Source of the DNA: Candidatus Poribacteria bacterium
GTDB taxonomy: Bacteria; Poribacteria; WGA-4E; PCPOR2b
Length of the DNA stretch: 64,000 bases
Reading direction: 5' to 3'
Assembly (NCBI GenBank): GCA_003635265.1
Contig: PYIZ01000029.1
Span: 77,796-141,795 of the forward strand
Of this stretch, positions 7,784-44,746 are shown piece by piece. Position 1 is the first letter of the stretch. Every line of letters starts with the position of its first letter. The position numbers and the translations under genes were made by a program. Below the pieces are notes generated by a model. The model saw nothing but the letters and a program-made list of their open reading frames with translations, was not told where the DNA came from and made no database searches.

Positions 7784-7871
7784 GGGAGTCATCGCTGCTA
7801 GAGACATGGAAGTTGACCATCATATGAAACGCCGGTTCGCCTTGTAGACCGATCCCGAAAGGAGATGAAAA

Positions 7872-8858: not shown

Positions 8859-8937
8859 ATGAATACGAAAATTAGGGTGCCTAAAAAATAGCAGATTGTA
8901 TTCAGTATCTGTGTCTTCCTTCTCGGCAACGGCAGTG

Positions 8938-9035
8938 CAAAATCCGCCAAGAACCGACTGTAGTCCAGCTTGGATAATTCCTGACCGGTTGTTCCCGGTT
9001 GATACACGATATAGCCGTATTACATTGCTCAGAAG
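8938..9035 (+). pseudogene. Relic of a PD40-protein C-terminus
   Basis: The translation DCSPAWIIPDRLFPVDTRYSRITLL parallels the end of the 6725..7783 protein (DVRPVWVIPDRSLSVNPQGNHATLW). It has no upstream propeller, no start codon, and the WG-x-LK tail has decayed. Confidence 0.45.
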
Positions 9036-9081
9036 GGAGTATCTGTTCAGAAAGTTTAGCGTTGGAACAGTACAGGAGGAA

Positions 9082-9789: not shown

Positions 9790-9814
9790 TAATTCTGGGC
9801 GGATATTCCCGATT

Positions 9815-9928
9815 CGCTCATGTAGAGAATTAGTGCAACAGCACCACTTACCTCAAAAACCGTAGGCGGGGCATCTTGCCCCGCCATCAATGCTTTCACC
9901 GTAATTGCACTCCGTTTTTACATGAGCC
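9815..9928. mobile_element. MITE-like element (GCTCATGTA...TACATGAGCC termini) carrying a REP hairpin as core
   Basis: Left GCTCATGTAGAGAATTAGTGCAA (9816-9838). Right TTGCACTCCGTTTTTACATGAGCC (9905-9928) is its inverted repeat. The core contains cGTAGGCGGGGCAtctTGCCCCGCC (9861-9885). No clear target-site duplication. Confidence 0.65.
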
Positions 9929-9981
9929 TTTTAACTTTGTTCTGGTATACCTGACTAACAACTTAGGTAAGGAGTTCTTTC

Positions 9982-10848
9982 ATGAACAAGCAACGATGTT
10001 TGTGCATCGTCTTTTCGCTTATCATTTTTGGGGGAGGAGTTCCTGACGGTTGGGGTCAAGCTGAATCTCCTCTGCCTCCGATCGACGCTCAATCCCTGAC
10101 TACAGGACTTGAAGCTACAGAATCGCTTATTGTGTCTGGAAAAGGGAAGGTGTATTTCACGTATGAAAGAAAGGATTTTCCAACTATTGAAGACTTCGGT
10201 TTTGACGGGCAGAAAACTGCTTTTAACTTTCATGTTGGCATCCTCAAGGACAGACGGGTTTTATTTGATGGCGAAAATGAGTTGATGATTCATAATGACC
10301 CAAACTCAGAAATCCCAAAACTTTATCTACATCCACGAAAGACAACACTTCTACATGAAGATCCGCGCAATTGGGGACTTCAGGTGTATGATATTCCTTT
10401 AAGCCAACACCTTCAGAAAAACGGAATGAAGATTCTTGGAAGTGAAGTCTTGGGAGAACTGCCATGCTACATCGTCGAGTCGAAGTGTAACGGAGAACCG
10501 ATAACGTTTTGGATCACCCCTGAGAGAGGCTTTCGTTGTGTACAAATTCAATATGACTCTATGTGGTATAATCCAGCCCCTTGGCCCACAGTGAAAACAG
10601 AGCGGATAGAGTATAAAGCGTACCAAATTGGTAATCAGGAGGTGTGGTTTCCTGCAGCGGGCAGCATGAAAACTCACAGGAAGTCAGATGGGCAATTTCT
10701 GAGCGGTCTTAACATGGAAGTAAAGGATTTTCAATTGAATGTTGATGTTTCGGATATATTTCAAGTTCAGATTGAGCCGGAGACAAAAGTGTGGGTTAAA
10801 AAGATGGAGGAATTTGTACCCCTCAAAGAAATTGATTGGAAGCCATAA
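9982..10848 (+). CDS. Hypothetical secreted protein, possibly LolA-fold (lipoprotein-sorting-like)
   Basis: ORF 9982..10848 with an AAGGAG RBS and signal peptide MNKQRCLCIVFSLIIFGGG. The ILGSEVLGELPCYIVES...ITFWITPERGF pattern resembles LolA-like domains. This is a weak call. Confidence 0.35.
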   Translation: MNKQRCLCIVFSLIIFGGGVPDGWGQAESPLPPIDAQSLTTGLEATESLIVSGKGKVYFTYERKDFPTIEDFGFDGQKTAFNFHVGILKDRRVLFDGENELMIHNDPNSEIPKLYLHPRKTTLLHEDPRNWGLQVYDIPLSQHLQKNGMKILGSEVLGELPCYIVESKCNGEPITFWITPERGFRCVQIQYDSMWYNPAPWPTVKTERIEYKAYQIGNQEVWFPAAGSMKTHRKSDGQFLSGLNMEVKDFQLNVDVSDIFQVQIEPETKVWVKKMEEFVPLKEIDWKP

Positions 10849-10881
10849 GCATACGGACCTATATAAAGAAGGAAAGAGACA

Positions 10882-11838
10882 ATGAAATTCCTACTGTTTA
10901 ACCAAACCTTACAGCCTCCGTGCCTGATTGTAATGCTGTGCCTTATGCTAATGTCAACAGGTCCAGCACAATCGCTCGATTCAATGATTGCTTTTTCTTC
11001 AGACCGTGAGGGTAGACTTGACATTTTTGTAATGAAGTCTGATGGTTCTCAGCAGCGCAATCTCACGAAAAATCCCACCTCAGTCCATATTGACCCTGCT
11101 TGGTCTCCCGATGGTCGGAAAATTGCCTTTGAGAGATTCGGAAAAATTTATGTTATGAACAACGCTGATGGCAAACATCTCATCAATCTGACCCCAAATC
11201 AACCTGGGAGCACGGCGCCTGCTTGGTTTCCTGATGGTCGAAAAATTGCCTTTGCAAAGGACAGGGACATTTATATTATGAATGCTAACGGTGAAAGCCC
11301 TGTCAATCTTACCGAAGGTCCCCCAGACGATAAAGATCCCGCTTGGTCTCCTGATGGACGAAAAATCGCCTTTGAGAGAGATTGGGATATTTATATCATG
11401 AATGCTAATGGCAAACGTCCTATCAGACTGACTTTCGTCATTGGTTTTAACAGGGAGCCCGCTTGGTCTCCCAATGGTCGGAAAATTGCTTTTCGGTCAA
11501 ACCGTGATGGAAACTGGGAGATTTATGTCATGAATGCTGACGGTACTGAGCAGGTCCAACTTACCAATACTGATACCCTCCCCAACGATTTTCCTGTTTA
11601 CAATAGAAACCCTTTCTGGTCTCCGAATAGTCGAAAAATTGGTTTTGATTCAAACCGCAATGGAAATTATGAAATTTATGTTATGGACGCTGACGGCGAG
11701 AATCCGACCAATCTCACGCAAAACCCAGCAAGTGATATAGGCGGTTCATGGGTTCTGGGTGAATTGGCAGTGTCTCCCAAGACAAGGTTATTGACGTTAT
11801 GGGGCGAAATAAAAACACTGGAAGGAGAGGAGAAATAA
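10882..11838 (+). CDS. Secreted PD40 (TolB-like) beta-propeller repeat protein
   Basis: ORF 10882..11838 with a hydrophobic N-terminus. Blades repeat as PAWSPDGRKIAFE...IYIMNANG. Confidence 0.88.
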   Translation: MKFLLFNQTLQPPCLIVMLCLMLMSTGPAQSLDSMIAFSSDREGRLDIFVMKSDGSQQRNLTKNPTSVHIDPAWSPDGRKIAFERFGKIYVMNNADGKHLINLTPNQPGSTAPAWFPDGRKIAFAKDRDIYIMNANGESPVNLTEGPPDDKDPAWSPDGRKIAFERDWDIYIMNANGKRPIRLTFVIGFNREPAWSPNGRKIAFRSNRDGNWEIYVMNADGTEQVQLTNTDTLPNDFPVYNRNPFWSPNSRKIGFDSNRNGNYEIYVMDADGENPTNLTQNPASDIGGSWVLGELAVSPKTRLLTLWGEIKTLEGEEK

Positions 11839-11892
11839 ATACTTCACGAAAGTCCATGCCGATTTCTGCGACTTGAGCAAATTGACTGTGCT

Positions 11893-13851
11893 TCAGCGTT
11901 CTTCTAATTTTTTTAATTCCCCCCACGTTATGATCCGTTTTCCAACAGCCTCCACCGCATACACGAAACCGGGTCTGACCCAATCCGCCTGTCTCGCATC
12001 TTCCATCCATAGCGTCACGGTTTCGGTGGCAAGATCGATCAGATAGAGCGAAGTTTCGCGATCTCTTTCTCTTCTTGGATCTCTCTCCTCTTGGTGGATC
12101 TCCATCTCTCCCTCTCTTCCTGATAAGATGAGTTGCGATCCATCAGGTCCCCAAACCAATCGAGACAAACTCCAATACTTTTTTCCAACTGTTCTTAGTA
12201 ATACGAATGCGTGTTTTTGTGCAGTATCAAGATTCATCAAATGCATCGTATATTCTGTTCCGAGGTGTATTGGTTCTATTGGTTCTCTTGCTTCCCTCGC
12301 ACTGAAAAGGAGATTGTCCCCTCCCGGCGACCATACAGGACTTGACCAATTGATAAGTTCGTCAGTTTTTAACGGGGTTGGTACCTTCCCATCGATCCGA
12401 ATCTTCATTAGACCCGCCGAGTTTTGTTCTTCGACGACGTAAATGAGATGTTGACTATCAGGGGACCAAGCCGGACGGAACCAACTTAGACCAGAGAAAT
12501 AGGTGAGCTTAAAACGGGTGATCAGATGTTCGTGGTGACCTTGTGAATCTGTGATATAAAGTCCCCAATCAACAACCTGTTCCCAATCAACCTGAGCGTC
12601 TCCAGACATAAAGGCAATCCATCTGCCATCTGGGGACCAAATTGGCGGCCCATCAAGTTCGCGGTGATGGTGCGTGATTTGCTGGACATTCTGCCCGTTT
12701 ATGTCCATCGTGTGGATTCTCGATGCGCCATTTTGAAGTGAGAGAAAGGCAATTTTGTGTCCGTCTGGAGACCAAATAGGTGCGAGGTTTAGACCGGGTT
12801 CAAACGTCAGTCGCTGTAGATTTTGACCGTCCGCCTCCATCACAAAAATTGCAGATTCAAAATCTCCAATTGCTTCCCCTTTTTTTACCAATCGGTCAAA
12901 CACAATTTTTTCTCCGTCGGGCGACCAGCTAGCATGCCCTTCTTCCTCTGGCGTTTGTGTCAAATTTATTATATCTTCGCCGTTGTTGTCCATGACGAAG
13001 ATGTCACTCCAATCAGGTCCTGGACGACCGACGGGACTTTGCATAACAAATAGGATTTTGTGGCCTTCTGGGTGCCAATCTAATGGGATTCTCTCCTCGG
13101 CACCCCCGGACGTTAAAGCGGTTATACTCTCTTTTGCCAAATTTATCATGTAGATTTGCAGTGGATTCGGTGGGGGCGGTTGTGTGATTACAATGTTATC
13201 AATGTATCCGATTTGGCTGCGTTTTGGTGACCAAGTGGGGAGGTCTACTCGTGTGAATGGGTGTGATGTAATATTGACGATGTCATTTCCATCGTTGCTA
13301 ATGATAGATATTCCTGCCCTGCCTACCCCGGTATCTTGATAATAATATATGATGTGCTCACTATCGGGGGACCAGTTAGGATTAGCAATCCACATTGGGG
13401 AGTCTGGTTGAAGGATATGTCGAATCTGGTGTCGTTTAATATCCATCACACAAAGATCTGTTTGTGGACCCTCCACTACGTCTGTAATCATGAGAAACAA
13501 GATTTTTTGCCCATCAGGTGACCAGTCTAGGTGTTCGTATCGAATATGCCGTTCGGCATTGTTGGTCAATTGTTCGAGTTGGCGTGTTGCGATGTTCAGT
13601 TTGAAAATGTTTGAGCTGTGTGCAACAAACACAACCTCAGTGCCATCCGGTGAAATTGAGGGCCAACTAGCAGACAGATTCCGGGTGAGTTGAACGGGGC
13701 GTCCATCTAAACCTTCAACCAAGAAGACTTCGGGAGTACCTTGGCGTTCGGAAACGAAGACGATTTTATCTTCCAATTCTCTTGCGTGCACGGATATGTC
13801 AATTAAAATCAGAAGCGCGATACACGAAAAGGCTAAAAGTTTCCTTTCCAT
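11893..13851 (-). CDS. Large secreted PD40/WD40-like beta-propeller protein (probably two propellers)
   Basis: ORF 11893..13851 with signal peptide MERKLLAFSCIALLILIDISVHA. Many WSPDG.KI.F blades across 652 aa. Confidence 0.85.
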   Translation of the reverse strand: MERKLLAFSCIALLILIDISVHARELEDKIVFVSERQGTPEVFLVEGLDGRPVQLTRNLSASWPSISPDGTEVVFVAHSSNIFKLNIATRQLEQLTNNAERHIRYEHLDWSPDGQKILFLMITDVVEGPQTDLCVMDIKRHQIRHILQPDSPMWIANPNWSPDSEHIIYYYQDTGVGRAGISIISNDGNDIVNITSHPFTRVDLPTWSPKRSQIGYIDNIVITQPPPPNPLQIYMINLAKESITALTSGGAEERIPLDWHPEGHKILFVMQSPVGRPGPDWSDIFVMDNNGEDIINLTQTPEEEGHASWSPDGEKIVFDRLVKKGEAIGDFESAIFVMEADGQNLQRLTFEPGLNLAPIWSPDGHKIAFLSLQNGASRIHTMDINGQNVQQITHHHRELDGPPIWSPDGRWIAFMSGDAQVDWEQVVDWGLYITDSQGHHEHLITRFKLTYFSGLSWFRPAWSPDSQHLIYVVEEQNSAGLMKIRIDGKVPTPLKTDELINWSSPVWSPGGDNLLFSAREAREPIEPIHLGTEYTMHLMNLDTAQKHAFVLLRTVGKKYWSLSRLVWGPDGSQLILSGREGEMEIHQEERDPRRERDRETSLYLIDLATETVTLWMEDARQADWVRPGFVYAVEAVGKRIITWGELKKLEER

Positions 13852-13870
13852 ATCAGCCGTTTTCCTTCTC

Positions 13871-13961
13871 GACTCATGTTAAGATTTAGTGCAAAGAAAC
13901 CGAGTTTTTTCTTCAAAACTTGGTTTCTCTTCGTGCTTTGCACTTTCTGTTTACATGAGCC
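13871..13961. mobile_element. MITE (91 bp) with a 9-bp target-site duplication
   Basis: GACTCATGTTAAGATTTAGTGCAA ... TTGCACTTTCTGTTTACATGAGCC, with a core 14-bp-class hairpin AGAAACCGAGTTTT/AAAACTTGGTTTCT. It is flanked by TTCCTTCTC at 13862-13870 and 13962-13970. Confidence 0.85.
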
Positions 13962-14002
13962 TTCCTTCTCATAATGCCGGTAGGCTGCCTCTTCGGATTA
14001 AC

Positions 14003-15262
14003 CTACTTCAAGCAACACTGCTTATACTTCTTACCGCTACCGCAGGGACAGGGCGAATTGCGCCCGACTTTCCGCGTGGGCACTACCGGCTTGGAACGCA
14101 GCAGTGGCATAATACTGTCAGCAGGGCGTCCAGCCTGTAACGCCGCAGCCATCATTTTCATCGGTCGGTCAATATGGTTGAAGAACTGCTTATAACCCGC
14201 ACAAAGATAGTTTAGACCCTCTTCACCGCTCGGCGTTTTGATGAAACGGTTCTTTGGACAGCCACCGTTGCAGACAAAACGGACTTCGCAGTCTAGGCAA
14301 TACTGAGGCAGAGTATCCCGCTTGTCGGTTCCGAACTTCCGTTGGAACGTTGATTCGACCAACGCTTCCATCGGGTTGTCCATAACGTTTCCGAGGAAGT
14401 ATTCCGGGTCAACGTAATGATCACAGGAGTAGAGGTCGCCGTTATGCTCGATTGCCATCGCGTTCCCGCAGGTCTCGTTGAAGATGCACAGACTTGGGTT
14501 ATACCCCAACCAAGCCTCTAATGCGACATCGAAAATTTGGACGAAGATCTTCCCAATATCGTTGACAACCCACTCATCGAAGATGGCACAGAGGAATTTA
14601 CCGTACTGCGCTGCGCGAACCGTGCGGTCGGTTACACCTTTCTCCTCCACGCGCTCGACAGCGGGGATAAACTGCATAAACTGAGTGCCAAGTTCCTTGA
14701 AATAGCGGTACACCTCAAGCGGATAATCGGCGTTGTGGCTGTTCACGACACAGAGCACATTGTAATCCACCTGATGCTTCTGTAGGAATCGCAATCCCCG
14801 AATGACATCATCGGAGGAAGGTCTGCCCCGCTTGTCGTAGCGATATTTATCGTGCAGTTCGGGAGGACCATCAATGCTAATACCGATTAGGAAGTTGTTC
14901 TGCTTGAAGAAGGTGCACCACTCATCATTCAGGAGCGTTGCATTGGTCTGGAATGTATTCTGGATGCGCGTGCCGACCCGTCGGTATGTCTCCTGATATT
15001 CGACAGCCCGCCGGAAGAAGTCGACGCCCATCAGTGTGGGTTCGCCCCCTTGCCAAGCAAAAGTTATCTCATTGACCTGCTGCGATTCGATATATTGACG
15101 GACATAATTTTCCAAAACCTCATCGGTCATCCGAAATGACCGCGTATCTGGATAGAGGTTCTCTTTATCCAGATAGAAGCAGTATTCACAATCCAAATTA
15201 CAGATTGCCCCAATCGGTTTTGTCATCACATGAAACGCACGTGGTGCTTTGTCTTCAATCAT
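14003..15262 (-). CDS. Anaerobic sulfatase-maturating enzyme (radical SAM/SPASM) with a C-terminal SEC-C motif
   Basis: ORF 14003..15262. FHVMTKPIGAICNLDCEYCFY (CxxxCxxC), GGEPTLMG, and SPASM Cys clusters (CDHY..., CLDCEVRFVCNGGCPKNRF). The C-terminal end is CPCGSGKKYKQCC. Its ATG overlaps the upstream stop (ATGA). Confidence 0.88.
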   Translation of the reverse strand: MIEDKAPRAFHVMTKPIGAICNLDCEYCFYLDKENLYPDTRSFRMTDEVLENYVRQYIESQQVNEITFAWQGGEPTLMGVDFFRRAVEYQETYRRVGTRIQNTFQTNATLLNDEWCTFFKQNNFLIGISIDGPPELHDKYRYDKRGRPSSDDVIRGLRFLQKHQVDYNVLCVVNSHNADYPLEVYRYFKELGTQFMQFIPAVERVEEKGVTDRTVRAAQYGKFLCAIFDEWVVNDIGKIFVQIFDVALEAWLGYNPSLCIFNETCGNAMAIEHNGDLYSCDHYVDPEYFLGNVMDNPMEALVESTFQRKFGTDKRDTLPQYCLDCEVRFVCNGGCPKNRFIKTPSGEEGLNYLCAGYKQFFNHIDRPMKMMAAALQAGRPADSIMPLLRSKPVVPTRKVGRNSPCPCGSGKKYKQCCLK

Positions 15263-16608
15263 TTTTTCACCTTCCTCTGGGTCGTAATCATCGCTACGTT
15301 GAAAACTGACCGCTCGTAGCCGCGCGATGGGCGGTTTACAATGTCGTCAAGTCCCCATAACGCCGATGAACTCCCACCATCAAAGTTTATTGCGTGCTTC
15401 GCGCCGAGGTCCCGCAAAAAACCAGCCATCTCATAAAGCGTCATGCCGATGCTATATCCGTATTGACGACCGTCCACCGCAATCAGGAATAGTTTATCAT
15501 CGTTAAATCCCAACGCGCTCCGCGGGTTCAATCGCGCCCCATTGCGGTGACGATAATTGGATCTGCCGCCTGACTGATGAAATTCCACAAGCTCCGGTTC
15601 AATTTTTCCATTCCGTAAGAGACGGAGATTTCCCCCGATCCCATCAGATACTCGCTGCCATTTGGCGGGTGAAAGCGCGATTTCGAGCGTACCTGTACCA
15701 CCCGCCCTGAATGTGGCATCCCATTTTATCGCTAACTGATAATCGAGTGCCAACACAACGCCGTTGGACGGGATTCCGCTGTTGCCCCGCCGATTGACCG
15801 CATCAATCTTGAAACGATTGCGATACCTGCCTGTAAGCGGCAATTCGAGTCCTTTGAGAGTAACTTCATAACTCCTTCGTGCAAGGGTCTCCTCTCCAAA
15901 TCGGGGTGTGTAGAGCACGGCAGCACAGTCAGCCTCAGGAATTTGATTAATACAATCGACTTCAAGCGATTCTCCATTGATTTGGATAATCCCGTTTAAT
16001 TCAACAGCATCGAGTAAAAATTCGCCATCGGTTGTTACACCAAAACTGGTTTCACCCCAAGGGGACGGTGGTGGAAAACCCCACCAATCGCGTCGTGGGG
16101 CGATACTAACCAATTCCCAGTCTTGGATATGGAGATTAAAGATGACCCCGCCACGCCCGACCCGGTCTCCGCGGAGACCGAAACTCCCATTGACGCCAGC
16201 TAGCAACGGAATATCTTGTTGTGCGAGCCGTCCCGCCATGCTGCTAATTGTCTCCCTGCCCAAGAGACGGTTGTTGGCGAGTTCAACCCCAAAGCGCAGA
16301 TTCCGAGATTCGCGCCTCATTTCAGCGACATAAACCGCTGCATCCCGCTCTTTCCACCAATCACGATAGATTCGTAAGCCTTGGGGCCAATCCGATTTTT
16401 TAAGGTAGTCCCGCTTCTTGGACGCAGGATTTGGACGGTCAGGGGGCGACTTACTGATGAGTCTAGATATAACGGAAGCGGACGCGGAATCGGTGTCGGG
16501 GCTCGGAGTAATCGCTCGTAACGCACCTATCCCCAAAATTAGGAGGAGCGTTAGCCCCCCAACGATGGCGATTTTGATGAGATAAACGCGTTGATTGCTC
16601 TTTTGCAT
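15259..16608 (-). CDS. Phosphodiester glycosidase family protein (DUF2233-like), membrane-anchored
   Basis: ORF 15259..16632. The start is moved to MQKSNQRVYLIKIAIVGGLTLLLILGIGAL (ATG 16606-16608, AAGGA upstream). The C-terminal FNDDKLFLIAVDGRQ...AINFDGGSSSALW is typical of the family. Confidence 0.7.
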   Translation of the reverse strand: MQKSNQRVYLIKIAIVGGLTLLLILGIGALRAITPSPDTDSASASVISRLISKSPPDRPNPASKKRDYLKKSDWPQGLRIYRDWWKERDAAVYVAEMRRESRNLRFGVELANNRLLGRETISSMAGRLAQQDIPLLAGVNGSFGLRGDRVGRGGVIFNLHIQDWELVSIAPRRDWWGFPPPSPWGETSFGVTTDGEFLLDAVELNGIIQINGESLEVDCINQIPEADCAAVLYTPRFGEETLARRSYEVTLKGLELPLTGRYRNRFKIDAVNRRGNSGIPSNGVVLALDYQLAIKWDATFRAGGTGTLEIALSPAKWQRVSDGIGGNLRLLRNGKIEPELVEFHQSGGRSNYRHRNGARLNPRSALGFNDDKLFLIAVDGRQYGYSIGMTLYEMAGFLRDLGAKHAINFDGGSSSALWGLDDIVNRPSRGYERSVFNVAMITTQRKVKK

Positions 16609-16645
16609 CCTCAATTGTCCTTGCTGTCCCATCGTTTTATATGGA

Positions 16646-16736
16646 GGTTCGTATTAAAAGAAAGTGCAAAATGCGAAGAGAAACCGAGTTTTTTCTTGAA
16701 AACTCGGTTTCTTTGCACCATTCCTTAACACGAGCC
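16646..16736. mobile_element. MITE (91 bp) with an 8-bp target-site duplication
   Basis: GGTTCGTATTAAAAGAAAGTGCAA ... TTGCACCATTCCTTAACACGAGCC, with core hairpin GAAACCGAGTTTT/AAAACTCGGTTTC. It is flanked by TATATGGA at 16638-16645 and 16737-16744. Confidence 0.85.
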
Positions 16737-16840
16737 TATATGGAAACTATGGATACTATTTTCACAAATGGCGTAGCAGTCTGTCAAGAATAAACGCAAT
16801 TGCGTTCGCTACCGCTCCCATCAATAGTCCATAAACCGGT

Positions 16841-16869
16841 TTGACTCCGAGGGGGTTTTCAAGTAAAAT
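16841..16869 (+). promoter_or_regulatory. Candidate sigma70 promoter for the aldo/keto reductase gene
   Basis: TTGACT (16841-16846), 17-nt spacer, TAAAAT (16864-16869). It lies about 45 nt upstream of ATG 16915, with a GGTGGAGGGA RBS. Confidence 0.5.
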
Positions 16870-16914
16870 GGTCTGTGTCAATCAATCAAGTCTTAACGAG
16901 GTGGAGGGACTCTA

Positions 16915-17901: not shown

Positions 17902-17911
17902 TTTAGGAGGA

Positions 17912-18003
17912 GGCTCATATAAAAAGAGAGTGCAAAGCATGAAGAGAAACCGAGTTTTTTCGGCAAAACTCGGTTTCTGTTACACGATTTCTTTACATGA
18001 GCC
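17912..18003. mobile_element. MITE (92 bp) with an 8-bp target-site duplication
   Basis: GGCTCATATAAAAAGAGAGTGCAA ... CACGATTTCTTTACATGAGCC, with core hairpin AGAAACCGAGTTTT/AAAACTCGGTTTCT. It is flanked by TAGGAGGA at 17904-17911 and 18004-18011. Confidence 0.85.
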
Positions 18004-18034
18004 TAGGAGGAAAGTATGACAAGCAATCCTATCG

Positions 18035-19147: not shown

Positions 19148-19166
19148 TTTTTGTGTCTCCTGTCAG

Positions 19167-19925: not shown

Positions 19926-19945
19926 TTATCGCTCCTTTCGTGCAT

Positions 19946-20842: not shown

Positions 20843-20884
20843 CCTGATTTCCTTTTGTGTCGTATGATTCCGTGTGGCACTCAC

Positions 20885-20913
20885 GATATAATGTTGTATC
20901 ATTGTTGCCACAA
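20885..20913 (-). promoter_or_regulatory. Weak candidate sigma70 promoter for the creatininase-PhyH-oxidase operon
   Basis: Minus strand: TTGTGG (20908-20913), 17-nt spacer, TATATC (20885-20890). It would place the transcription start inside the longer ORF-track start, supporting ATG 20842. Confidence 0.3.
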
Positions 20914-21122
20914 TCTTTTCAGATTCAATTCCTGTTTACTGTGTTTAATCTAAGCAGTTTCGCAAGGATTCTGCTCTACTTCGACAGAACTGAATTATGG
21001 CATCTTAATTGCGTATATTTAGACAGACCTTTGCCAAGCAAGATTTTATGATAGCTTCATACATCTGTCAATCACAATATATGGCAGGCGGAACACGGAC
21101 TTAACAGATTTTGATTTTTCGC

Positions 21123-21151
21123 TTGGCAGTGGGTATGTCCTATGATATACT
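21123..21151 (+). promoter_or_regulatory. Sigma70 promoter with extended -10 for the Tyr-rich lipoprotein / OMP pair
   Basis: TTGGCA (21123-21128), 17-nt spacer, TGaTATACT (-10 at 21146-21151). About 50 nt upstream of ATG 21205. Confidence 0.6.
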
Positions 21152-21204
21152 CAACATATCTTGCTGAATCAATCTACAAACAATTTGCGAAAGGAAGAAT
21201 AACC

Positions 21205-21813
21205 ATGGACAGACTCGTTCTCTCTGTCACACCCCTGCTGGCAGTAATTGCCCTCGCAGGGTGTTACACGCAGGTTGGTTACTATGAGCCACGTCATTCA
21301 ACCCGACAAACCTCCTATCATCATCAAGATGAGCACCAACGCAAAGATGGGGACGAAAAGGTGGAATCCGAGGAGAAAGCGCAAAAGGAAGTTGAAGACG
21401 AAGGGTACTACGGCCGTCGCAAGCCGAGCTACGGTTATTCTGGCCGTTATTCTCGATCTTACTACTACGGCGATTACTCCTATCCCGTCTATCCATACTA
21501 CTACGGTGGCTATCATCCCCTCTATCCCTATTACAGATATTCCTACCCATATTATTCATCTTATGGATATTATCACTATTATGGAGGTTATAGGTATCGT
21601 CCTTATCGATATGGGTACTCAAAGCCGCGCTCCAAAATTAGTGATTTAAATTTCGGGAAACGACGTTCGCAAAGCTATCGGGGGATCAGATCCCGCAATC
21701 CATCTTCAAGTCGTCCAGATAGGTCATTGAGGAGGAATGAAGAGAGTAAGTCTCCCTCTTCTAGTTCGTCTGAATCGCGGCGCGACAGATCTCGAAGATC
21801 CAGAAGGAGGTAA
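21205..21813 (+). CDS. Lipoprotein with an extreme Tyr-rich low-complexity core and an Arg/Ser-rich tail
   Basis: ORF 21142..21813. The start is moved to MDRLVLSVTPLLAVIALAGC (lipobox LAGC) behind AAGGAAG. By my count, 32 Tyr fall in the 75-residue stretch EGYYGRR...YRYGYSK (21400-21624). The tail is SSSSSESRRDRSRRSRRR. Confidence 0.7.
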   Translation: MDRLVLSVTPLLAVIALAGCYTQVGYYEPRHSTRQTSYHHQDEHQRKDGDEKVESEEKAQKEVEDEGYYGRRKPSYGYSGRYSRSYYYGDYSYPVYPYYYGGYHPLYPYYRYSYPYYSSYGYYHYYGGYRYRPYRYGYSKPRSKISDLNFGKRRSQSYRGIRSRNPSSSRPDRSLRRNEESKSPSSSSSESRRDRSRRSRRR

Positions 21814-21820
21814 CGGTCCA

Positions 21821-23107
21821 ATGACAAGATTGATGAAAACCACCATTGCTTTGGCATTGATGTTCGTCTGTTTTGTGTTTGGGAGTAGCATCGGAGTTGC
21901 ACAGGATGAGGAAATTGCCATCGGTAATACCTTTGGCCTTGGTGCAAGGACGATGGGAATGGGTGGGGCATTTCTCGCTGTTGCTGATGATTTCACGACA
22001 CTTTACTGGAACCCGGCGGGGCTCGCTCAAATTAGAAAGTTTGAATTGTTTGGCAGCCTGTCACACAGCGAGCTAGATTCAGAAACAGAATTCACTCGCG
22101 GTCGTGCTGCCGAAGCCGACAATTCAAAAACTCGTCCTAACTCAATAGGTCTCGTCTATCCTTTATACGCGAATCGTGGAGGCTTTGCGTTTGCGCTTGG
22201 ATATAATCGTCCTCAGAATTTTGATTCGGAGGTTGCCATTCAGGGACTGGACCCATCTTCTGGTTCAGTGTTTAGTGGCTTTGATGTGGATGAAACAACC
22301 TCTAACAATGGTGGTATGGGTATCTGGAGTTTTGGGATGGGTGTCTTTATATCAAAAAATATCTTGCTTGGTGGCTCAATAGATTTTTGGCAGGGTTCAA
22401 GTTTCAACGAGTTAAATAGCGCGGCAGAAGACATCAATAACATTGACCCAGAATTAGCAAGTTTTGCTTTTCACGACACTGTGGACCGAGACTATTCAGG
22501 GCTCAGTGGTCGGGTAGGCGTGCTTGCTTTCGCTGGGGAAAATGTAACACTCGGTGGGACTATTACACTACCAGCAGACCTTGAGGTTCACGAGGTCTGG
22601 GAACAGCAAACGATAGTGCAATTTGATGACGGTGAAGAGGATATGGAGAGTGATGCTGGATCAATCTTATACGATATTGAACGCCCGTTTGAGTTTGGTG
22701 GAGGTGTTGCTGTCAAGTTCTTAGAGAAGCGTTTGACGCTTGCCGGTGATATACAGTTTACAGACTGGACGCAGACCGAATATGACCCGCTACCAGCAGA
22801 AGATTCACAGAATAACTTCAGTCGGTATTATGACAGTACTATGCAGGTTCGCCTCGGTGCAGAGTATCGCATACCGCGAATCGAAGCCAGTGTACGCGTC
22901 GGTTACTTCCGTGATCCAATTCCGTTTCAAGATAGAGATATAGACAATGATCGAGACTTTTTGACACTTGGGGTAGGCAAGATTTTCGACCAGATTATTA
23001 AAATTGACGTTGCCTTCATGCGAGGTTCATGGGAACAATCAGGCAATTCACTCTCAGAAAGTCAAACCTCCAACCGGGTGTTTGTGTCTGCGGGCTATCG
23101 ATATTAA
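21821..23107 (+). CDS. Outer-membrane beta-barrel protein (FadL/PorV-like)
   Basis: ORF 21737..23107. The start is moved to MTRLMKTTIALALMFVCFVFGSSIGVAQ (signal peptide). AAGGAGG at 21804-21810 lies inside the end of the upstream gene. Contains the GARTMGMGGAFLAVADDFTTLYWNPAGLA motif, and the aromatic C-terminus ...FVSAGYRY is typical of OM barrels. Confidence 0.65.
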   Translation: MTRLMKTTIALALMFVCFVFGSSIGVAQDEEIAIGNTFGLGARTMGMGGAFLAVADDFTTLYWNPAGLAQIRKFELFGSLSHSELDSETEFTRGRAAEADNSKTRPNSIGLVYPLYANRGGFAFALGYNRPQNFDSEVAIQGLDPSSGSVFSGFDVDETTSNNGGMGIWSFGMGVFISKNILLGGSIDFWQGSSFNELNSAAEDINNIDPELASFAFHDTVDRDYSGLSGRVGVLAFAGENVTLGGTITLPADLEVHEVWEQQTIVQFDDGEEDMESDAGSILYDIERPFEFGGGVAVKFLEKRLTLAGDIQFTDWTQTEYDPLPAEDSQNNFSRYYDSTMQVRLGAEYRIPRIEASVRVGYFRDPIPFQDRDIDNDRDFLTLGVGKIFDQIIKIDVAFMRGSWEQSGNSLSESQTSNRVFVSAGYRY

Positions 23108-23173
23108 AGGTTGTGATGACGAAGGACAATTGAACCGCTCAATTTGGTTTTTGGTATAACTTGAGCAAGGTAT

Positions 23174-23210
23174 AAAAAAAGGCGTTGACTGAGCATCAAC
23201 GCCTTTTTTT
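23174..23210. terminator. Bidirectional rho-independent terminator
   Basis: AAAAAAA-GGCGTTGA-ctgagca-TCAACGCC-TTTTTTT. It sits between the convergent OMP gene (+) and rplQ (-). Confidence 0.85.
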
Positions 23211-23231
23211 ATGATCCTATGGATATCTGCA

Positions 23232-23585
23232 CTATTCTACCAATTGGATATACGCCATCTGAGCGGCGTCGCTACGCCTCAGTTCACCTCTAATGATACG
23301 GGTATATCCACCACTACGGTCTTGATAACGGGGTCCAAGATCGTCGAACAATTTTTGCAAAACTTCGTGGTCGTGGATAACCTTGGCAGCCTGACGGCGC
23401 GCATGTAAGTCGCCTCGTTTAGCGAGTGTAATCAGTTTTTCAGCGGTCCGCCTAAGTTCTTTGCACTTTGGCAAGGTTGTGCGAATCTGTTCGTGCTCGA
23501 ATAATGCGGTGGCTTGGTTGCTAAACAACGCCTTGCGATGTCCGCTTGTTCTACCAAGTTTCCTTCCCATTTTCCGGTGACGCAT
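23232..23585 (-). CDS. rplQ: 50S ribosomal protein L17
   Basis: ORF 23232..23585. [20 protein letters not shown]... Confidence 0.95.
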
Positions 23586-23599
23586 GACTATTCATCCTC

Positions 23600-23615
23600 C
23601 CCGATAGATCGGGAT
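23600..23615. repeat. CCCGAT-NN-ATCGGG palindrome, copy 2 of 3
   Basis: CCCGATAGATCGGGAT lies in the rpoA-rplQ spacer, abutting the rplQ RBS. Confidence 0.8.
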
Positions 23616-23639
23616 TTTCAACATTATATTTTGGGCAAC

Positions 23640-24605
23640 TCAATTATCATTGCCAAGTGTCATCCCTAAAGAAAGGCCCATCTCCGAAAGGATATCCTTA
23701 ATCTCATTGAGGGATTTTCTGCCGAAATTCCGAAATTTCAACATCTCTTGTTCAGTCTTAACCACCAGGTCTCGGATGGTTGTGATCTTCGCAGCTTCCA
23801 GACAATTGGAGGATCGGACTGAAAGTTCAAGTTCCGCAACAGGCTTCGATAGCCATTTCTCACGCTGCAGTTCTTCTTCGTCAATTTCCTCGACTGGTTC
23901 GACGTAGGTTTCATCGAAATCGCTAAAGAGCCTAAATTGATCTAGCAGAATGTCCGAAGCTTGTGTAACCGCTTCTTTCGCAGTGATACTGGCATCTGTC
24001 CACACTTCTAGGATAAGCCTGTCATAGTTAGTCATGTGTCCAACCCGTGTCTCTTCAACCACGAAATTGACTTTTCTGACTGGCGAAAACTTGGAATCGA
24101 CCGGGATAACTCCGATCTGTTGATTATAGTTCAGATGTTCCTCCCCGAACTCATATCCTCTGCTTCGACAAACTTGGATCTCCATATTCAAACCATCGCA
24201 CTGATCGAGCGTTGCGATATGTTGGTCCGGGTTGATGATCTCAACCTGTCCATTCGGTTGAATATCTGCTGCTGTAATGTTACCGGAGCCTTCTGCAGAT
24301 AAAACCAAGGTGATAACCTCATCCGTGTCAATTCGGAGTCGAATTTCTTTAAGGTTAAGCAGAACCTGAGTGACATCCTCCTTCATCCCATCAAGTGTCG
24401 AGAACTCATGCTTCACTCCATCAATAGCAACCGCAATAACAGCCGCGCCTTGAATCGAGGAAAGCAAAACGCGTCGAAGCGAGTTACCAATAGTCATTCC
24501 AAATCCTCGCTCAAGCGGTTCGGCGATAAATTTCCCATAATCAGGCCGCAGGTTATCAAGGTCGGTAACGAGGTGGTTTGGCTTGGTGATTTCCCTCCCT
24601 GTCAT
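23640..24605 (-). CDS. rpoA: DNA-directed RNA polymerase subunit alpha
   Basis: ORF 23640..24605. [12 protein letters not shown] and the C-terminal domain [11 protein letters not shown]. Confidence 0.95.
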
Positions 24606-24633
24606 CTATCTTATCCTCCTACAAGTGGCTGTG

Positions 24634-25260
24634 TTATTTGGAGTAAAGTTCAACGATTAACTGTGTTTGGAGGTCTGTGGCAAGTTGCTCGACGTTTGGA
24701 AACATCCTAACAACTCCCTCTTGTTTGTCGATATCCAACTCAAGCCAATCTGGTGTACCCCGGTGTTGAGAACGTTCTAATGCCTCTTGAATAACTGCCA
24801 CGTTACGACTTTTCTCGCGCGTTTGAATAACATCGCCAGGTTGTATCAGGTAAGAGGGAACATTGACTCTTTTTCCGTTCACAACAAAATGGTTATGTGT
24901 AACAAGTTGTCGAGCCTGCAAGCGTGAGTTAGCAAAACCGAGACGATAAATCACGTTGTCCAACCGGCGCTCCAATAATGTTAGTAAATTCTCTCTCACA
25001 ACACCTTTCTGATGTGCGGCTTTTGTATAGTAGTTCTTAAACGGCTTTTCTAAGATGCTATAGATGCGCTTCGATTTCTGCTTGGTGCGTAATTGGCGTC
25101 CGTAATCTTTGACTTTGGGCAGTTTTTGGCCATGTTGACCGGGTGGATAACTACGACGCTCAAATGAACACTTCGGGGAATCGCAGCGTTGTCCCTTCAA
25201 AAAAAGTTTTTCACCTTCTCTTCGACATAACTTACATACAGAACCTAAATATTTGCTCAT
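24634..25260 (-). CDS. rpsD: 30S ribosomal protein S4 (Cys4 zinc-finger form)
   Basis: ORF 24634..25260. [31 protein letters not shown]. Confidence 0.95.
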
Positions 25261-25318
25261 TCTTTTCTGGTTAAATTAGGACCATTTCCCCCTTTCTTAA
25301 AATCCCAATTTGCAAACG

Positions 25319-25711
25319 TTAGACGCGCCGCCGTTTAGGCGGTCGACAACCGTTATGAGGAATTGGGGTTACATCTTTCATTGCGGTAATTTCTAGCCCA
25401 GCTGCTGAGAGAGATCGAATTGCGGACTCTCTGCCAGACCCCGGTCCCTTGACCCGTACCTCAACCCGTTTCATGCCATGCTCCATCGCTTTCCTAGCAC
25501 AAGCTTCCGCAGTTTGTTGGGCGGCAAATGGCGTTGATTTCCGAGAACCGCGAAAGCTGCTACCTGCACTTGCCCAAGCGATTGCATTCCCGTTGAGATC
25601 GGTAATCGTAATAATCGTATTATTAAAGGTTGCTTGGATATGCGCAATTCCTTCAGAAATATTCTTTCTTTCTCTCCTCCTTGGACGGTTGGAGGAACCT
25701 GACTCTCGCAA
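25319..25711 (-). CDS. rpsK: 30S ribosomal protein S11
   Basis: ORF 25319..25711. [18 protein letters not shown]. Confidence 0.95.
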
Positions 25712-25749
25712 AACTGATCTCCTTTCTGAAGCTTAATGCACAAGTGGTA

Positions 25750-26145
25750 TTAACCACCCTTACGCGCTGCTTCTTTTGCCTTTCTTCCGACCGAAATAGT
25801 CTTTGCTTTCCCTTTGCGCGTCCGTGCATTAGTGCTCGTCCGCTGCCCCCGTGCCGGTAACTGCCGACGGTGGCGCAACCCACGATAACTATTGATGTCC
25901 ATCAACCGTTTGATATTCAACTCGACTTCACGTCGTAAGTCTCCTTCAACCTTGTAATCTTGGTTAATCGTTTCTCTTAATCGGCTGATTTCGGACTCAT
26001 CAAGATCTTGGGACTTTTTGGCGGGGTCAATATGTAGATCCTCGACCATTTTTGCGGCGGTCTGGCGCCCAATCCCATAAATATAGGTCAGGGCAATATC
26101 GATCCTTTTCGTTCGGGGTAAATCAACACCAGCAATTCTTGCCAT
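25750..26145 (-). CDS. rpsM: 30S ribosomal protein S13
   Basis: ORF 25750..26145. [26 protein letters not shown]. Confidence 0.95.
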
Positions 26146-26179
26146 GTTTTTCTCCTCCTTGCGCGCTTAGGTAAAATAC

Positions 26180-26296
26180 TTAACCTTGTCTTTGCTTATG
26201 CTTTGGATCCGCAGCGCAGATAACGCGGACAACACCTTTTCTTTTAATAACCTTGCACTGATTACACATTTTTCTTACTGAGGCACGGACTTTCAT
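26180..26296 (-). CDS. rpmJ: 50S ribosomal protein L36 (zinc form)
   Basis: Not in the ORF track because it is too short. Own translation of the minus strand gives [38 protein letters not shown] (38 aa), with ATG at 26294-26296 and stop at 26180-26182. Confidence 0.9.
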
Positions 26297-26323
26297 CATC
26301 TCTCCTCCACTGGAAAATGAACC

Positions 26324-27670
26324 CTATCTTGTGCGACGTCCCCTCACACGTCTGTCTTTCAGGAACCCTTCGTAATGCCTCATCGTCAAGTAGGACTCAA
26401 TTTGCGACACTGTATCTAATACGACTCCCACAACGATTAAGACTGAGGCACCACTGATTAACGCGCCAGTGCCTAGCCAACCTTGCAGAAGTAAGGGAAA
26501 CACCGCAATTGCGGCGAGAAATACCGCACCGGGTAAAGTGATTCTGGTTAAGGTATCGTTAATATAATCTGCTGTCCTTTTTCCCGGACGAATGCCCGGA
26601 ATAAATCCACCATACTTCCTCAAATCATCCGCCATTTGCACGGGATTAATCTGAACAGCTGTGTAGAAGTATGTAAAACCGATAATTAGAAGCGCGTAGA
26701 TCACCCAATATAAGGGGCTGGTTGCGCTGAAGGCTGCGAGCAGTCCGCCAATCCATGCCCATGCGGGAAACTGACTTTGCATAAGGCTTAGAACCGTTGA
26801 AGGGAATTGCATTAGGGTAACGGCGAAAATAATTGGAATCATGCCAGCTGCATTGACACGCAGCGGGATATGGGTTGCTTGTCCTCCCATCACCTTACGT
26901 CCGACAACTCGTCGTGCATATTGGACAGGAATTTTGCGGACACAGAAAGTGATGTACACGGTTCCCATAATCGCCACAACTCCCAAGGCGAGGAAGATGA
27001 CCAGCTTTGGAAGGTCAATTTGACGATTAAGGAGTTGGTTGAATATTGTTTGGATTCCACCCGGCATGCCCGAGAGAATGCCGATTGTAATAATTAGGGA
27101 AATGCCTTGACCAATTCCACGTTCCGTAATTTGTTCGCCGAGCCACATAACGAAGGATGTGCCAGCCATCAGGGTAATCATGGTTAGCAGAGTCCACCAG
27201 ATACCCGGATTCGTCACGATTTCAATGCTTTCGCTTCTGATAATGGCTCCCGGCCTTTGCAACATCAGGCTGATCATGACACCCTGAATCGCGCTAAGAA
27301 TAACAGTGGCATAGCGTGTATACTGGGTAATCTTTTTCCGTCCGTCCGGTTCTTTGGAAAGTTTCTCAAGGAAGGGGATAACGACGGTAAGGAGCTGCAT
27401 GACGATCGAAGCACTGATATACGGTTGAATACCAAGCGCAAAAATCGTCATCTGTTTGAATGCACCACCGGAAAAGAGATCAACGAAATCAAGGACGCTT
27501 CCACCGGTGCGGCCTCTTAAGCCATCAAAAAACTTCTCTAATTCGATATCGTCAATGCCGGGGAGTGTGATATGGGCACCCAAGCGATAAACAATTAACA
27601 GTAGCGCTGTAAAGATAATCCGCTGCCGCAATTCTGGAATTTTGAAAGCGTTTTGGAATGCCTTAATCAC
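26324..27670 (-). CDS. secY: Preprotein translocase subunit SecY
   Basis: ORF 26324..27670. Ten-TM pattern and the usual position between rplO and rpmJ. Confidence 0.95.
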   Translation of the reverse strand: MIKAFQNAFKIPELRQRIIFTALLLIVYRLGAHITLPGIDDIELEKFFDGLRGRTGGSVLDFVDLFSGGAFKQMTIFALGIQPYISASIVMQLLTVVIPFLEKLSKEPDGRKKITQYTRYATVILSAIQGVMISLMLQRPGAIIRSESIEIVTNPGIWWTLLTMITLMAGTSFVMWLGEQITERGIGQGISLIITIGILSGMPGGIQTIFNQLLNRQIDLPKLVIFLALGVVAIMGTVYITFCVRKIPVQYARRVVGRKVMGGQATHIPLRVNAAGMIPIIFAVTLMQFPSTVLSLMQSQFPAWAWIGGLLAAFSATSPLYWVIYALLIIGFTYFYTAVQINPVQMADDLRKYGGFIPGIRPGKRTADYINDTLTRITLPGAVFLAAIAVFPLLLQGWLGTGALISGASVLIVVGVVLDTVSQIESYLTMRHYEGFLKDRRVRGRRTR

Positions 27671-28117
27671 TTAAATCACCTCAATGCTGCCGCCTGTTGA
27701 TTCTATCTTTTCAATAGCAGATTTTGAGAATCGGTGTCCCTGTACCGTTAATTGCTTTTCGAGGTTGCCTTCTCCAAGGATTTTGATCTTTCCGTCTTTC
27801 TTCTTTGTAATTCCATTTTCTCGCAAAATCTCAGGGGTAATCGTTGTCCCGTTATCAAAATGATTTAGTGTTTGGATATTTACAATCTCATACTCAATCC
27901 GTTTATGTGCAATTCTTCTGGGACCACGTTTAGGCAAACGTCTCACCAATGGCATCTGTCCCCCTTCAAACCAAGCGGGAATGGAGACACCAGACCGGGA
28001 TTTCTGCCCTTTGTGGCCACGACCACAAGTTTTACCCCAACCCGAACTTTCGCCGCGCCCAACTCGCTTCCTATTACGCGTCGATTTTTCTGCAGGTTTG
28101 AGTTCGTTTAGTTTCAT
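27671..28117 (-). CDS. rplO: 50S ribosomal protein L15
   Basis: ORF 27671..28117. MKLNELKPAE...GRGHKGQKSRSG. Confidence 0.95.
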   Translation of the reverse strand: MKLNELKPAEKSTRNRKRVGRGESSGWGKTCGRGHKGQKSRSGVSIPAWFEGGQMPLVRRLPKRGPRRIAHKRIEYEIVNIQTLNHFDNGTTITPEILRENGITKKKDGKIKILGEGNLEKQLTVQGHRFSKSAIEKIESTGGSIEVI

Positions 28118-28146
28118 TAGGTATCTACTCCATTTTATGGATTAGT

Positions 28147-28234
28147 GGTTACGATTAAAAGTTCCGCAGAAACCGAGTTTTTTCTTCAAAACTCGGTTTC
28201 TCTATATGTTTTGCACTTTCTTTCTACATGAGCC
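28147..28234. mobile_element. MITE copy inside the spc operon (rplO-rpsE spacer)
   Basis: Right end TTGCACTTTCTTTCTACATGAGCC (28211-28234). Perfect core hairpin AGAAACCGAGTTTT-ttcttc-AAAACTCGGTTTCT (28168-28201). The left end GGTTACGATTAAAAGTTCCGCAG is degenerate. No clear TSD. Confidence 0.75.
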
Positions 28235-28314
28235 AAATGTTCCTGTTTTGCTTTAGGGATGAATTTTTCGTACGAATTAGACGCACACCCAATGGGAATT
28301 ATGGGAAAAGAGGA

Positions 28315-44734: not shown

Positions 44735-44746
44735 TTACTGCTGCAT

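Follow-up and report, generated by a model that had tools for sequence, protein, structure and literature searches.

REP and REPIN elements, hairpins that bear a conserved tetranucleotide at the 5' side, are mobilised by RAYT (HUH) transposases. In the IS1595 family, target-site duplications are usually 8 bp; in the related eukaryotic Merlin elements, GG is conserved at the termini and the duplications measure 8-9 bp (PMC8101967). The targets of ISApl4 are A/T-rich and 8 bp long (PMC12561309), and an IS1595-derived MITE is present in Haloquadratum (PMC3852290). The ends of ISL3 elements have been reported as GGCTCTTCG... (PMC11448079, PMC6305408), with direct repeats of 8 bp (PMC11448079).

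We analysed a 64-kb window (the whole stretch of 64,000 nucleotides studied here) from a genome of Candidatus Poribacteria, for which a preliminary description had proposed a five-copy MITE family with terminal inverted repeats and transposase-type duplications. Poribacteria are known mainly as sponge symbionts. The proposal was supported: all five copies were found at their coordinates, with the termini, 14-bp stem and 6-nt loop that had been described, and the repeats do form a family of small non-coding mobile elements, one that is common in Poribacteria genomes. The window copies are bounded by GGCTCATG...CATGAGCC; the element end is GGCTCATGTTAAGAAATCGTGCAA, the opposite end, read inward, is GGCTCATRTAAAAAGAAAGTGCAAAG, and the terminal repeat pair of the MITE type is GGCTCATGT...GTGCAA. 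These inverted repeats are imperfect, ~24-26 bp long, and kept over ~100 ends. The usual core is a hairpin with the stem AGAAACCGAGTTTT / AAAACTCGGTTTCT; three copies pair throughout this stem, and the copy at 13871 has a single mismatch in it. Differing hairpin cores are found inside the same termini, so the core is modular and its hairpin cassettes are interchangeable. The window elements span 70-188 bp, and no ORF fits inside them.

Three copies of the usual type are bracketed by exact duplications, as had been noted for the pairs beginning at 13862, 16638 and 17904. The 91-bp copy at 13871-13961 (plus strand; hairpin 13895-13928) lies between a radical-SAM maturase gene and a PD40-repeat gene and is flanked by TTCCTTCTC (13862-13870 / 13962-13970), a 9-bp repeat for which an alternative reading is an 8-bp duplication combined with a terminal indel of 1 nt. 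The 91-bp copy at 16646-16736 (minus strand; hairpin 16679-16712) is flanked by the 8-bp TATATGGA (16638-16645 / 16737-16744). The 92-bp copy at 17912-18003 (minus strand; hairpin 17945-17978), located between convergent aldo-keto reductase and FAD-oxidase genes, is flanked by the 8-bp TAGGAGGA (17904-17911 / 18004-18011). A fourth, at 28165-28234 (plus strand, 70 bp), is a one-ended derivative that retains the hairpin (28168-28201) and the right terminus only. It sits in a ribosomal-protein operon, between rpsE and rplO, with the flanks AAAAGTTC (28157-28164) and AAATGTTC (28235-28242). This copy had been taken to be two-ended and to start at 28147; it has no left inverted repeat, and the supposed degenerate left terminus is host sequence, since alignment to the empty sites of three relatives (L176, L178 and L179) limits the insert to 28165-28234. 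A profile built from four copies found those four at E = 1e-22 to 1e-27 and the copy at 9815 at E = 0.002.

The copy at 9815-9928 (plus strand, 114 bp, termini CGCTCATG...CATGAGCC) has as its core a GC-rich, GTAG-headed hairpin at 9862-9884, and no duplication is recognisable in its flanks. The hairpin had been viewed as a second repeat system nested in this one copy. Another genome, however, carries a 115-bp element that is ~88% similar (L072, 3870-3984) and has an exact 8-bp duplication, AACACGGA. Therefore, the copy at 9815 represents a subfamily of its own and not a nested insertion peculiar to one copy. Two further features are new here. At 44679-44866 (plus strand) lies a sixth, two-ended copy, a 188-bp long variant that has the family's termini and another core, made up of the GTAG-headed hairpin GGAACAACGATCGTTGTTCC, tandem repeats of the 8-nt unit AATGAACY, and CGTTTCAC repeats; its flanks show no recognisable duplication, and long variants resembling it were seen in L054, L046 and L020. 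At 4141-4176 (plus strand), a lone right-end terminus, TTTTACACTTCCCTTTTCTATGAACC, adjoins other small hairpins; it is similar to a 289-bp composite in L001 and is either a remnant or one segment of a composite repeat of larger size.

Further copies, sought genome-wide and in relatives, proved numerous: a scan with the hairpin pattern returned more than 116 stretches, almost all of them from genomes of Candidatus Poribacteria, in many species, and among the stretches listed dozens hold a full-length copy bracketed by an exact 8-bp duplication. For 52 two-ended elements from all sampled DNA we scored the flanks for duplications. An 8-bp duplication was exact in 19/52 and had one mismatch in 10/52 (29/52 in total), against a mean of 0.74 (≤1 mismatch) with permuted flanks and 0 with offset flanks. 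The target preference is AT-rich (72% A+T in the 29 scored duplications versus a 50% background) and not purine-rich as previously suggested; the two RBS-like targets are atypical.

The mobility of the family is shown directly by empty sites in close relatives (aldo-keto reductase 94-96% identical, or L15 protein identical). The sites orthologous to copy 17912 are empty in L124 and L126, where a 25-30 bp intergenic gap contains a single target copy, and the site of copy 16646 is empty in L124, with a single TATACGGA; in both cases the whole 91-92 bp is missing. For copy 28165, the sites in L176, L178 and L179 are empty and an identical filled site is present in L177. All empty sites of these three copies hold one copy of the 8-bp target. 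Because they are missing from some close relatives, copies 16646, 17912 and 28165 are younger insertions. Copy 13871 is common to the relative L124, with the same duplication, and is therefore an older, shared insertion.

A terminus-pattern scan of metagenomes, using a pattern built from the MITE termini, recovered insertion sequences (IS) of 977-978 bp with these repeats at both ends; the element of L130 and L134/L139/L140/L158 is 977 bp long, with IRL GGCTCATGTAAAAAGAATGTGCAAAG and IRR GGCTCATRTTAAAWGATTGTGCAAAG. The IS contain two overlapping ORFs, a zinc-ribbon/HTH ORF (ORF1) and a DDE_Tnp_IS1595 ORF (ORF2), and the transposase stop codon is located within the right repeat. ORF2 matches PF12762 with E = 5.7e-19 and 3.6e-16. 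Its match to NF033547 (64 bits) is under the model's 75-bit cut-off because ORF2 alone was scored, and ORF1 matches the IS1595 zinc ribbon PF12760 weakly and below cut-off (E = 7e-4). The IS thus encode an IS1595-family transposase. A full-length IS with these termini, which the preliminary description had recommended searching for, does exist, in metagenome and assembly contigs, and its transposase belongs to IS1595 rather than to ISL3. Named relatives of the transposase come from Chloroflexota. One IS copy is located in a conjugative transfer cluster. The IS also generates duplications, of 8 bp in L183 (TTAAACTT) and 9 bp in L182 (AAGGATAAA), and is polymorphic, the site AAGTTTAA being filled in L184 and empty in the co-occurring dominant strain L185. 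No duplication was seen at the copies in the short-read contigs L130, L134 and L139, which are possibly chimeric assemblies.

The left repeat of the IS is identical to the MITE right end at 25/26 bases, part of which reflects ascertainment because the IS was found with a pattern of MITE termini; the right repeat is identical to the MITE left end at 20/24 bases, and a left/right asymmetry at position 10 is common to IS and MITE ends. Past ~26 bp, the similarity between IS and MITE is not significant compared to shuffles. The MITE left end differs from both the left and the right repeat of the IS at 4-5 positions, and the true parent of the MITE is therefore probably a closer, unseen relative of the recovered IS. 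A tblastn search for an IS1595 transposase gave none in the window or in the ~1 Mb of sampled poribacterial DNA.

We consider it very likely that the repeats are MITEs of ~91 bp whose ends come from an IS1595-family IS and which are moved by such a transposase in trans. The two MITE ends would be the counterparts of the right and left inverted repeats of the ~978-bp IS. A transposase of the IS1595 clade, supplied in trans, would bind both ends and insert the MITE at an AT-rich site through an 8-bp staggered cut, the repair of which would leave a duplication of 8 bp, occasionally 9 bp. The poribacterial copies would thus be moved by this transposase clade, and a copy of its gene would reside, or recently have resided, in the MITE-bearing poribacterial genomes. 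The elements have what defines a MITE: they are short and non-coding, they carry terminal repeats and fixed-length duplications, and they are multi-copy and polymorphic. As judged from sequence, their termini, common to PF12762-encoding elements, and their 8-9-bp duplications mark them as apparent IS1595 derivatives.

Mobilisation by an ISL3-family transposase, the partner proposed in the preliminary description, would fit the GGCTC start and the size of the duplications, as ISL3 ends also start with GGCTC and ISL3 elements also make 8-bp duplications, and an ISL3-linked MITE in Microcystis (PMC11448079) and ISArsp7 (PMC6305408) can be cited in its favour. However, only these five terminal bases are common to the MITE and the published ISL3 ends, 8-bp duplications are just as typical of IS1595 (PMC8101967), and every recovered autonomous element that has the full 24-26-bp termini encodes an IS1595 transposase and not an ISL3 transposase (PF01610). 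Six-frame translations of the sampled loci also contained no ISL3-like C-terminal motif, which is a weak test. An ISL3 partner is in our view very improbable. The same holds for the view that the repeat is a regulatory element or a structured RNA under conservation, for instance a terminator or an RNA-stability hairpin, to which the flanking repeats would be incidental. The whole element does fold into a long stem (-33 to -40 kcal/mol, z = -6 to -9), strong conservation of the hairpin sequence extends to other phyla, and copies 13871 and 28165 lie inside operons. As the primary explanation, a structured RNA is nonetheless already refuted by the empty sites, with their precise single target copy, in close relatives. 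In addition, duplications occur at dozens of unrelated sites, copies lie between convergent, divergent and tandem genes alike, the T-run signature of a terminator was not found, and Rfam gave no match at gathering score across the whole window, only chance-level matches to miRNA models (E ~0.1-0.6). The element may still have a secondary, exapted role.

It is also conceivable, but unlikely, that the mobile unit is the 34-bp palindromic hairpin itself, moved in REP-like fashion by a hairpin-recognising enzyme, and that the MITE shell is one landing place among others. In 66/127 occurrences the hairpin has no MITE termini nearby, several occurrences belong to other repeat families, four are in Chloroflexota contigs of 48-64% GC, and the window has GTAG-headed hairpins typical of REPs. 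On the other hand, inverted repeats and 8-bp duplications account for insertions 16646 and 17912, whose empty sites lack the entire 91-92 bp; duplications are also present in hairpin-less subfamilies that share these termini (L072, L055, L062); and the surroundings of solo hairpins show neither a duplication nor a conserved target. Mobility of the MITE and of the hairpin are compatible, in that the hairpin can be a separate cargo. We entertain as a tentative and rather doubtful idea that the palindrome AGAAACCGAGTTTT-N6-AAAACTCGGTTTCT, whose stem recurs unchanged in Chloroflexota contigs that differ widely in GC content, is a module that spreads by itself or is under functional constraint, with the MITE as its carrier only. 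If so, the palindrome without MITE termini (half of its poribacterial occurrences), its presence in other repeat families, its stem in Chloroflexota, the Chloroflexota relatives of the transposase and the IS copy in a conjugative cluster would together suggest that Chloroflexota and Poribacteria have exchanged both a hairpin cassette and a lineage of transposons, perhaps in a shared habitat, which is a guess, and the hairpin might have a host function.

With the probably IS1595-derived MITEs described here, an uncultivated phylum gains a defined, recently active transposon family together with a likely transposase family. The definition of the family aids intergenic annotation and helps to account for assembly breaks, and the presence or absence of single copies can be used to tell strains apart. 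The case also illustrates that a family guess from five terminal bases and the length of the duplication is unsafe: these two features suit ISL3 as well as IS1595. Only the interchangeability of the hairpin cores and the recurrence of one hairpin in a second phylum may go beyond routine mobile-element annotation.

Among known systems, the REP and REPIN elements resemble the core of some copies, being small, palindromic and intergenic hairpins, some GTAG-headed. Unlike the elements here, REPs have neither terminal inverted repeats nor a target-site duplication, and the main MITE hairpin has no GTAG head; on these features the family does not fit the REP/REPIN class. The ISL3-derived MITE of Microcystis aeruginosa, with GGCTCTTCG ends (PMC11448079), is alike in its GGCTC start, 8-bp duplication, shortness and lack of coding sequence, but the rest of the terminus differs from that of ISL3-derived MITEs and the matching autonomous elements encode IS1595 transposases. 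Closest are the IS and MITEs of the IS1595 family, with which the poribacterial elements share duplications of 8, occasionally 9 bp, AT-rich targets, small size and lack of coding capacity; the ISHwa6-related MITE of Haloquadratum walsbyi, for instance, is 165 bp long, its repeats measuring 25 bp and its duplication 8 bp (PMC3852290). The poribacterial termini start with GG, as in the Merlin elements related to IS1595, and are nearly identical to those of elements encoding DDE_Tnp_IS1595 and IS1595 zinc-ribbon domains. They differ from known IS1595 systems in their host, Candidatus Poribacteria, in their modular core, and in that the transposase of the matching IS is split over two overlapping ORFs.

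The MITE family of the window is real, recently active and widespread in Candidatus Poribacteria, and its termini are the termini of an IS1595-family clade. Five copies of this ~91-bp non-coding element had been described, starting at 9815, 13871, 16646, 17912 and 28147, and reading all five intervals bore out the copies together with their termini and stem; the direct repeats flanking copies 13871, 16646 and 17912 are exact, as claimed. Four copies, 88-92 bp long as delimited in the preliminary description, have the common termini GGCTCATG...CATGAGCC, with the variants CGCTCATG, GACTCATG and GGTTCG among the window copies. A 14-bp stem (AGAAACCGAGTTTT / AAAACTCGGTTTCT; one mismatch in 13871) with a 6-nt loop is also common to four copies, and copy 9815 has a GC-rich GTAG-headed hairpin inside the same termini. 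In a multiple alignment the MITE is asymmetric: the “left” end GGCTCATGTTAAGAAATnGTGCAA runs into the hairpin without a spacer, and after the hairpin come 12 nt of spacer and then the “right” end TTTGCACTTTCTTTTTACATGAGCC. The + strand carries copies 13871 and 28147, the - strand 16646 and 17912. A profile built from four copies recovers those four at E = 1e-22 to 1e-27 and adds a 188-bp element at 44679-44866, which has the same termini and a different core, as well as a lone right end at 4141-4176.

The same termini surround several interiors: (i) the 34-bp hairpin, (ii) this hairpin with extra small hairpins (TTCCGC..GCGGAA, TCCCGAT..ATCGGGA), (iii) a hairpin with a GTAG head together with AATGAACY and CGTGAAAC repeats, ~180 bp, as in 44679-44866, and (iv) the GC-rich hairpin of copy 9815. 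The last had been read as two nested repeat systems. A counterpart in another genome (locus L072) is ~88% similar and has an exact duplication, so the 9815 type forms a subfamily and is not a single case of nesting. Runs of the 8-nt unit AATGAACY lie at 44744-44792, within the long MITE variant, and at 37555-37601 and 58345-58374; the unit recurs in long MITE variants of loci L020, L046 and L054.

Other repeats share the window. GTAG-headed GC-rich hairpins at 6402-6424, 9862-9884 and 52348-52370 (GTAGGCGGGGCATCTTGCCCCGC twice identical, plus one variant) neighbor repeated AGCCCCAGCGGGGCGAYATGTGT units (see also 52300-52335 and 52375-52448); these hairpins and their adjoining units resemble REPs and are distinct from the MITE. 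The largest direct-repeat families, unrelated to the MITE, are strongly repeated 120-135-bp units in a cluster of paralogous PD40/Tricorn-type beta-propeller genes on both strands at 6900-13851.

A hairpin scan with one genome per species returned at least 116 stretches, nearly all in Candidatus Poribacteria genomes of many species, and a handful of matches in Chloroflexota contigs. In the 922 kb of DNA retrieved the profile gave 169 non-overlapping matches, and inspection with flanks revealed dozens of ~91-bp full-length copies with exact 8-bp flanking repeats at unrelated sites (for example TTACTCAT, TATAAAGT, AAAATTGA, TCAGACAT, AAGAAAAA and AACGTGAA). When all elements with two recognizable termini were scored (n = 52), the 8-bp duplication was exact in 19 and had one mismatch in 10; permuted flanks gave a mean of 0.74 and flanks shifted by 8 bp gave none. 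The scored duplications are 72% A+T against a background of 50%, and the target preference is AT-rich, not purine-rich as had been hinted. A literature search found no paper connecting Poribacteria with MITEs. MITE variants are also present in metagenome contigs of 41-48% GC (L127-L159; for example L136 2787-2957, L141 6746-6836, L155 2466-2575 and L135/L151), where the left terminus CGCTCATGTTAAGAAATCGTGCAAAG is nearly invariant and the hairpins differ (AGAAACCGAGTTTCTCGGAGAAACTCGGTTTCT, or CCTTGAAAAGG...CCTTTTCAAGG); with these variants, the family reaches beyond the genomes sampled.

BLAST of the window against the hairpin-scan loci found no orthologous MITE region. An exact look-up of the window aldo-keto reductase gave no record, and orthologous loci were reached instead through its homologues, which are 94-96% identical and lie on 5-6.6-Mb contigs, the best named one being poribacterial. 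Copy 17912, filled in the window (TGATT-TAGGAGGA-[92 bp]-TAGGAGGA-AAGTATGACAAGC), has an empty site in the relatives' loci L126 (TGATT-TAGGGGAA-ATGCGACAAGC) and L124, and the site of copy 16646 reads CCCATCGTTTTATACGGAAACTGTGGAT in L124, with no insert. Copy 13871 is common to L124 with the same duplication and is therefore an older insertion. For copy 9815 a difference in gene order prevented alignment of the orthologous site. The window L15 protein is unchanged on six other contigs, in three of which the rpsE-rplO spacer is 113-118 bp versus 197 bp with copy 28147. Alignment with the empty sites limits the DNA inserted at this copy to 28165-28234, with flanks AAAAGTTC and AAATGTTC. The right end and hairpin described for it are present, but its supposed decayed left terminus is host sequence found in the empty sites, and the copy is thus single-terminus.

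Relatives carry further insertions at these loci. At ~6150-6330 of L126, the orthologue of window 16632-16760, an unrelated small element (ends CAGGACTTACGCA...TGCGTAAGTCCT, flanked by TATAGAG) occupies the exact site of copy 16646, a spot that may be an insertion hot spot. Intergenic regions flanking the reductase in L125 (10990-11270) and L124 (~9860-9990) hold other insertions, rich in GTAG-headed hairpins such as GTAGGTCGAGATTCATATCTCGAC and GTAGGTGCGGTTTGTAACCGCACC, and the window has none there; turnover is fast in the intergenic regions around this gene.

The MITE would fold very stably if transcribed, as might be expected were it primarily an RNA or regulatory element. That reading is excluded: relatives have empty sites, and the element has neither an Rfam match nor a terminator-like tail. 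With so stable a fold, it may have a secondary effect. Movement by a REP/RAYT mechanism is likewise at odds with the data, because such a mechanism does not generate inverted repeats with 8-bp duplications.

The 34-bp hairpin, which may behave independently of the MITE, also occurs by itself, 66 of 127 occurrences having no MITE terminus within 120 bp (L008 2597, L017 5727, L077 604, L082 2109 and 62 more in poribacterial loci). Four of these 66 are in Chloroflexota contigs of 48-64% GC, with an identical stem; the L077 palindrome is longer by ~10 bp on each side. The palindrome GAAACCGAGTTTT-N6-AAAACTCGGTTTC is found inside other repeat families too. Among full-length MITEs of L001-L116 and the window, oriented by their termini, the loop and its reverse complement are about equally common (CAAGAA 8 versus TTCTTG 6; GAAGAA 6 versus TTCTTC 5; TCCGAA 2 versus TTCGGA 2). 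This is so in both subfamilies and suggests that the loop has inverted repeatedly across the perfect stem.

Insertion sequences with the same ends came from a scan of metagenome contigs that used a consensus of both termini and one position chosen to exclude ~75% of MITE ends. The 33 stretches obtained are mostly MITE variants whose hairpin differs slightly, some of them with 8-bp duplications, and five are ends of one 977-bp element (contigs L130 and L134/L139/L140/L158) with left repeat GGCTCATGTAAAAAGAATGTGCAAAG and right repeat GGCTCATRTTAAAWGATTGTGCAAAG. Its ORF2 matches DDE_Tnp_IS1595 (E = 5.7e-19 and 3.6e-16) and NCBIfam IS1595, its ORF1 weakly matches the IS1595 zinc ribbon, and the TGA within ...CATGAGCC serves as stop codon of the transposase. 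Of 26 bases in the MITE right end, 25 agree with the IS left repeat; for the MITE left end against the IS right repeat the count is 20 of 24. Position 10 is asymmetric in the same way in both, since the MITE left end and IS right repeat have T there and the MITE right end and IS left repeat have A. A suspected similarity of MITE and IS further inward, which would have included the transposase C-terminal codons, is not significant in shuffle tests (p = 0.3-0.98).

Transposase relatives number 2862 at E <= 1e-10, most of them ~170-180 aa and on ~1-kb contigs; those that are named are Chloroflexota, and more distant ones keep GGCTCA...GTG[A/C]AA ends. Duplications flank two well-assembled IS copies, 8 bp long (TTAAACTT) at one and 9 bp (AAGGATAAA) at the other. 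The former is filled in a 3x-coverage strain and empty, with a single AAGTTTAA, in the 189x dominant 6.8-Mb chromosome of the same sample; homologues of the adjoining MFS gene are only 56% identical and named as Chloroflexota. The transposase of this clade is split in two overlapping ORFs, ORF2 being in the +1 frame (L130 587-696, L139 1246-1409), and the overlap contains GGGGGAAAAAAGGGG, with an A-run at L130 665-670. Since nearly all listed homologues are ~170-180 aa, the split looks conserved; programmed frameshifting or transcriptional slippage may lie behind it. One copy of the clade, at ~9600-10600 of L186, sits between DUF4141 and TrbL genes in a Trb/VirB-type conjugative transfer cluster, a possible route of spread between lineages.

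A transposase gene resident in the MITE-bearing genomes was not found in the poribacterial sample. A full-length element was sought in ~1 Mb of DNA from poribacterial loci: pairs of termini spaced by 250-4000 bp yielded none, a generic scan for inverted repeats with duplications gave unrelated elements only, and multi-copy ORFs gave nothing relevant. Neither an IS1595 nor an ISL3-like protein was found in the sample, and a regex for the ISL3 C-terminal motif, which is a weak test, had no match in the sampled loci. Two candidates were discarded: seven viral-contig matches to the terminus are chance matches within sequence that looks coding, one stretch accounting for six of them, and a 44-nt inverted repeat at 53551 / 55171 is low-complexity and flanks an ordinary GMC oxidoreductase gene. 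In locus L047 the left terminus of one MITE copy holds a ~925-bp element (3139-4063) whose inverted repeats are 16-17 bp long (AACGCAAGTTGCTAGT), and TTAAGAAATA, which is MITE sequence, seems to be duplicated on either side of this element.

Elements of the IS1595 family usually make 8-bp duplications and encode zinc-finger and DDE_Tnp_IS1595 domains, and in the related Merlin elements the termini are GG and the duplications 8-9 bp (PMC8101967). A/T-richness of the targets has a parallel in one family member, which favors A/T-rich 8-bp targets (PMC12561309), and a MITE related to IS1595 is already on record (PMC3852290). The preliminary description had guessed an ISL3-family partner. This attribution is not supported. 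The published ISL3 ends, GGCTCTTCG... (PMC11448079, PMC6305408), have only five bases in common with the MITE termini, which are those of the IS1595-family clade.
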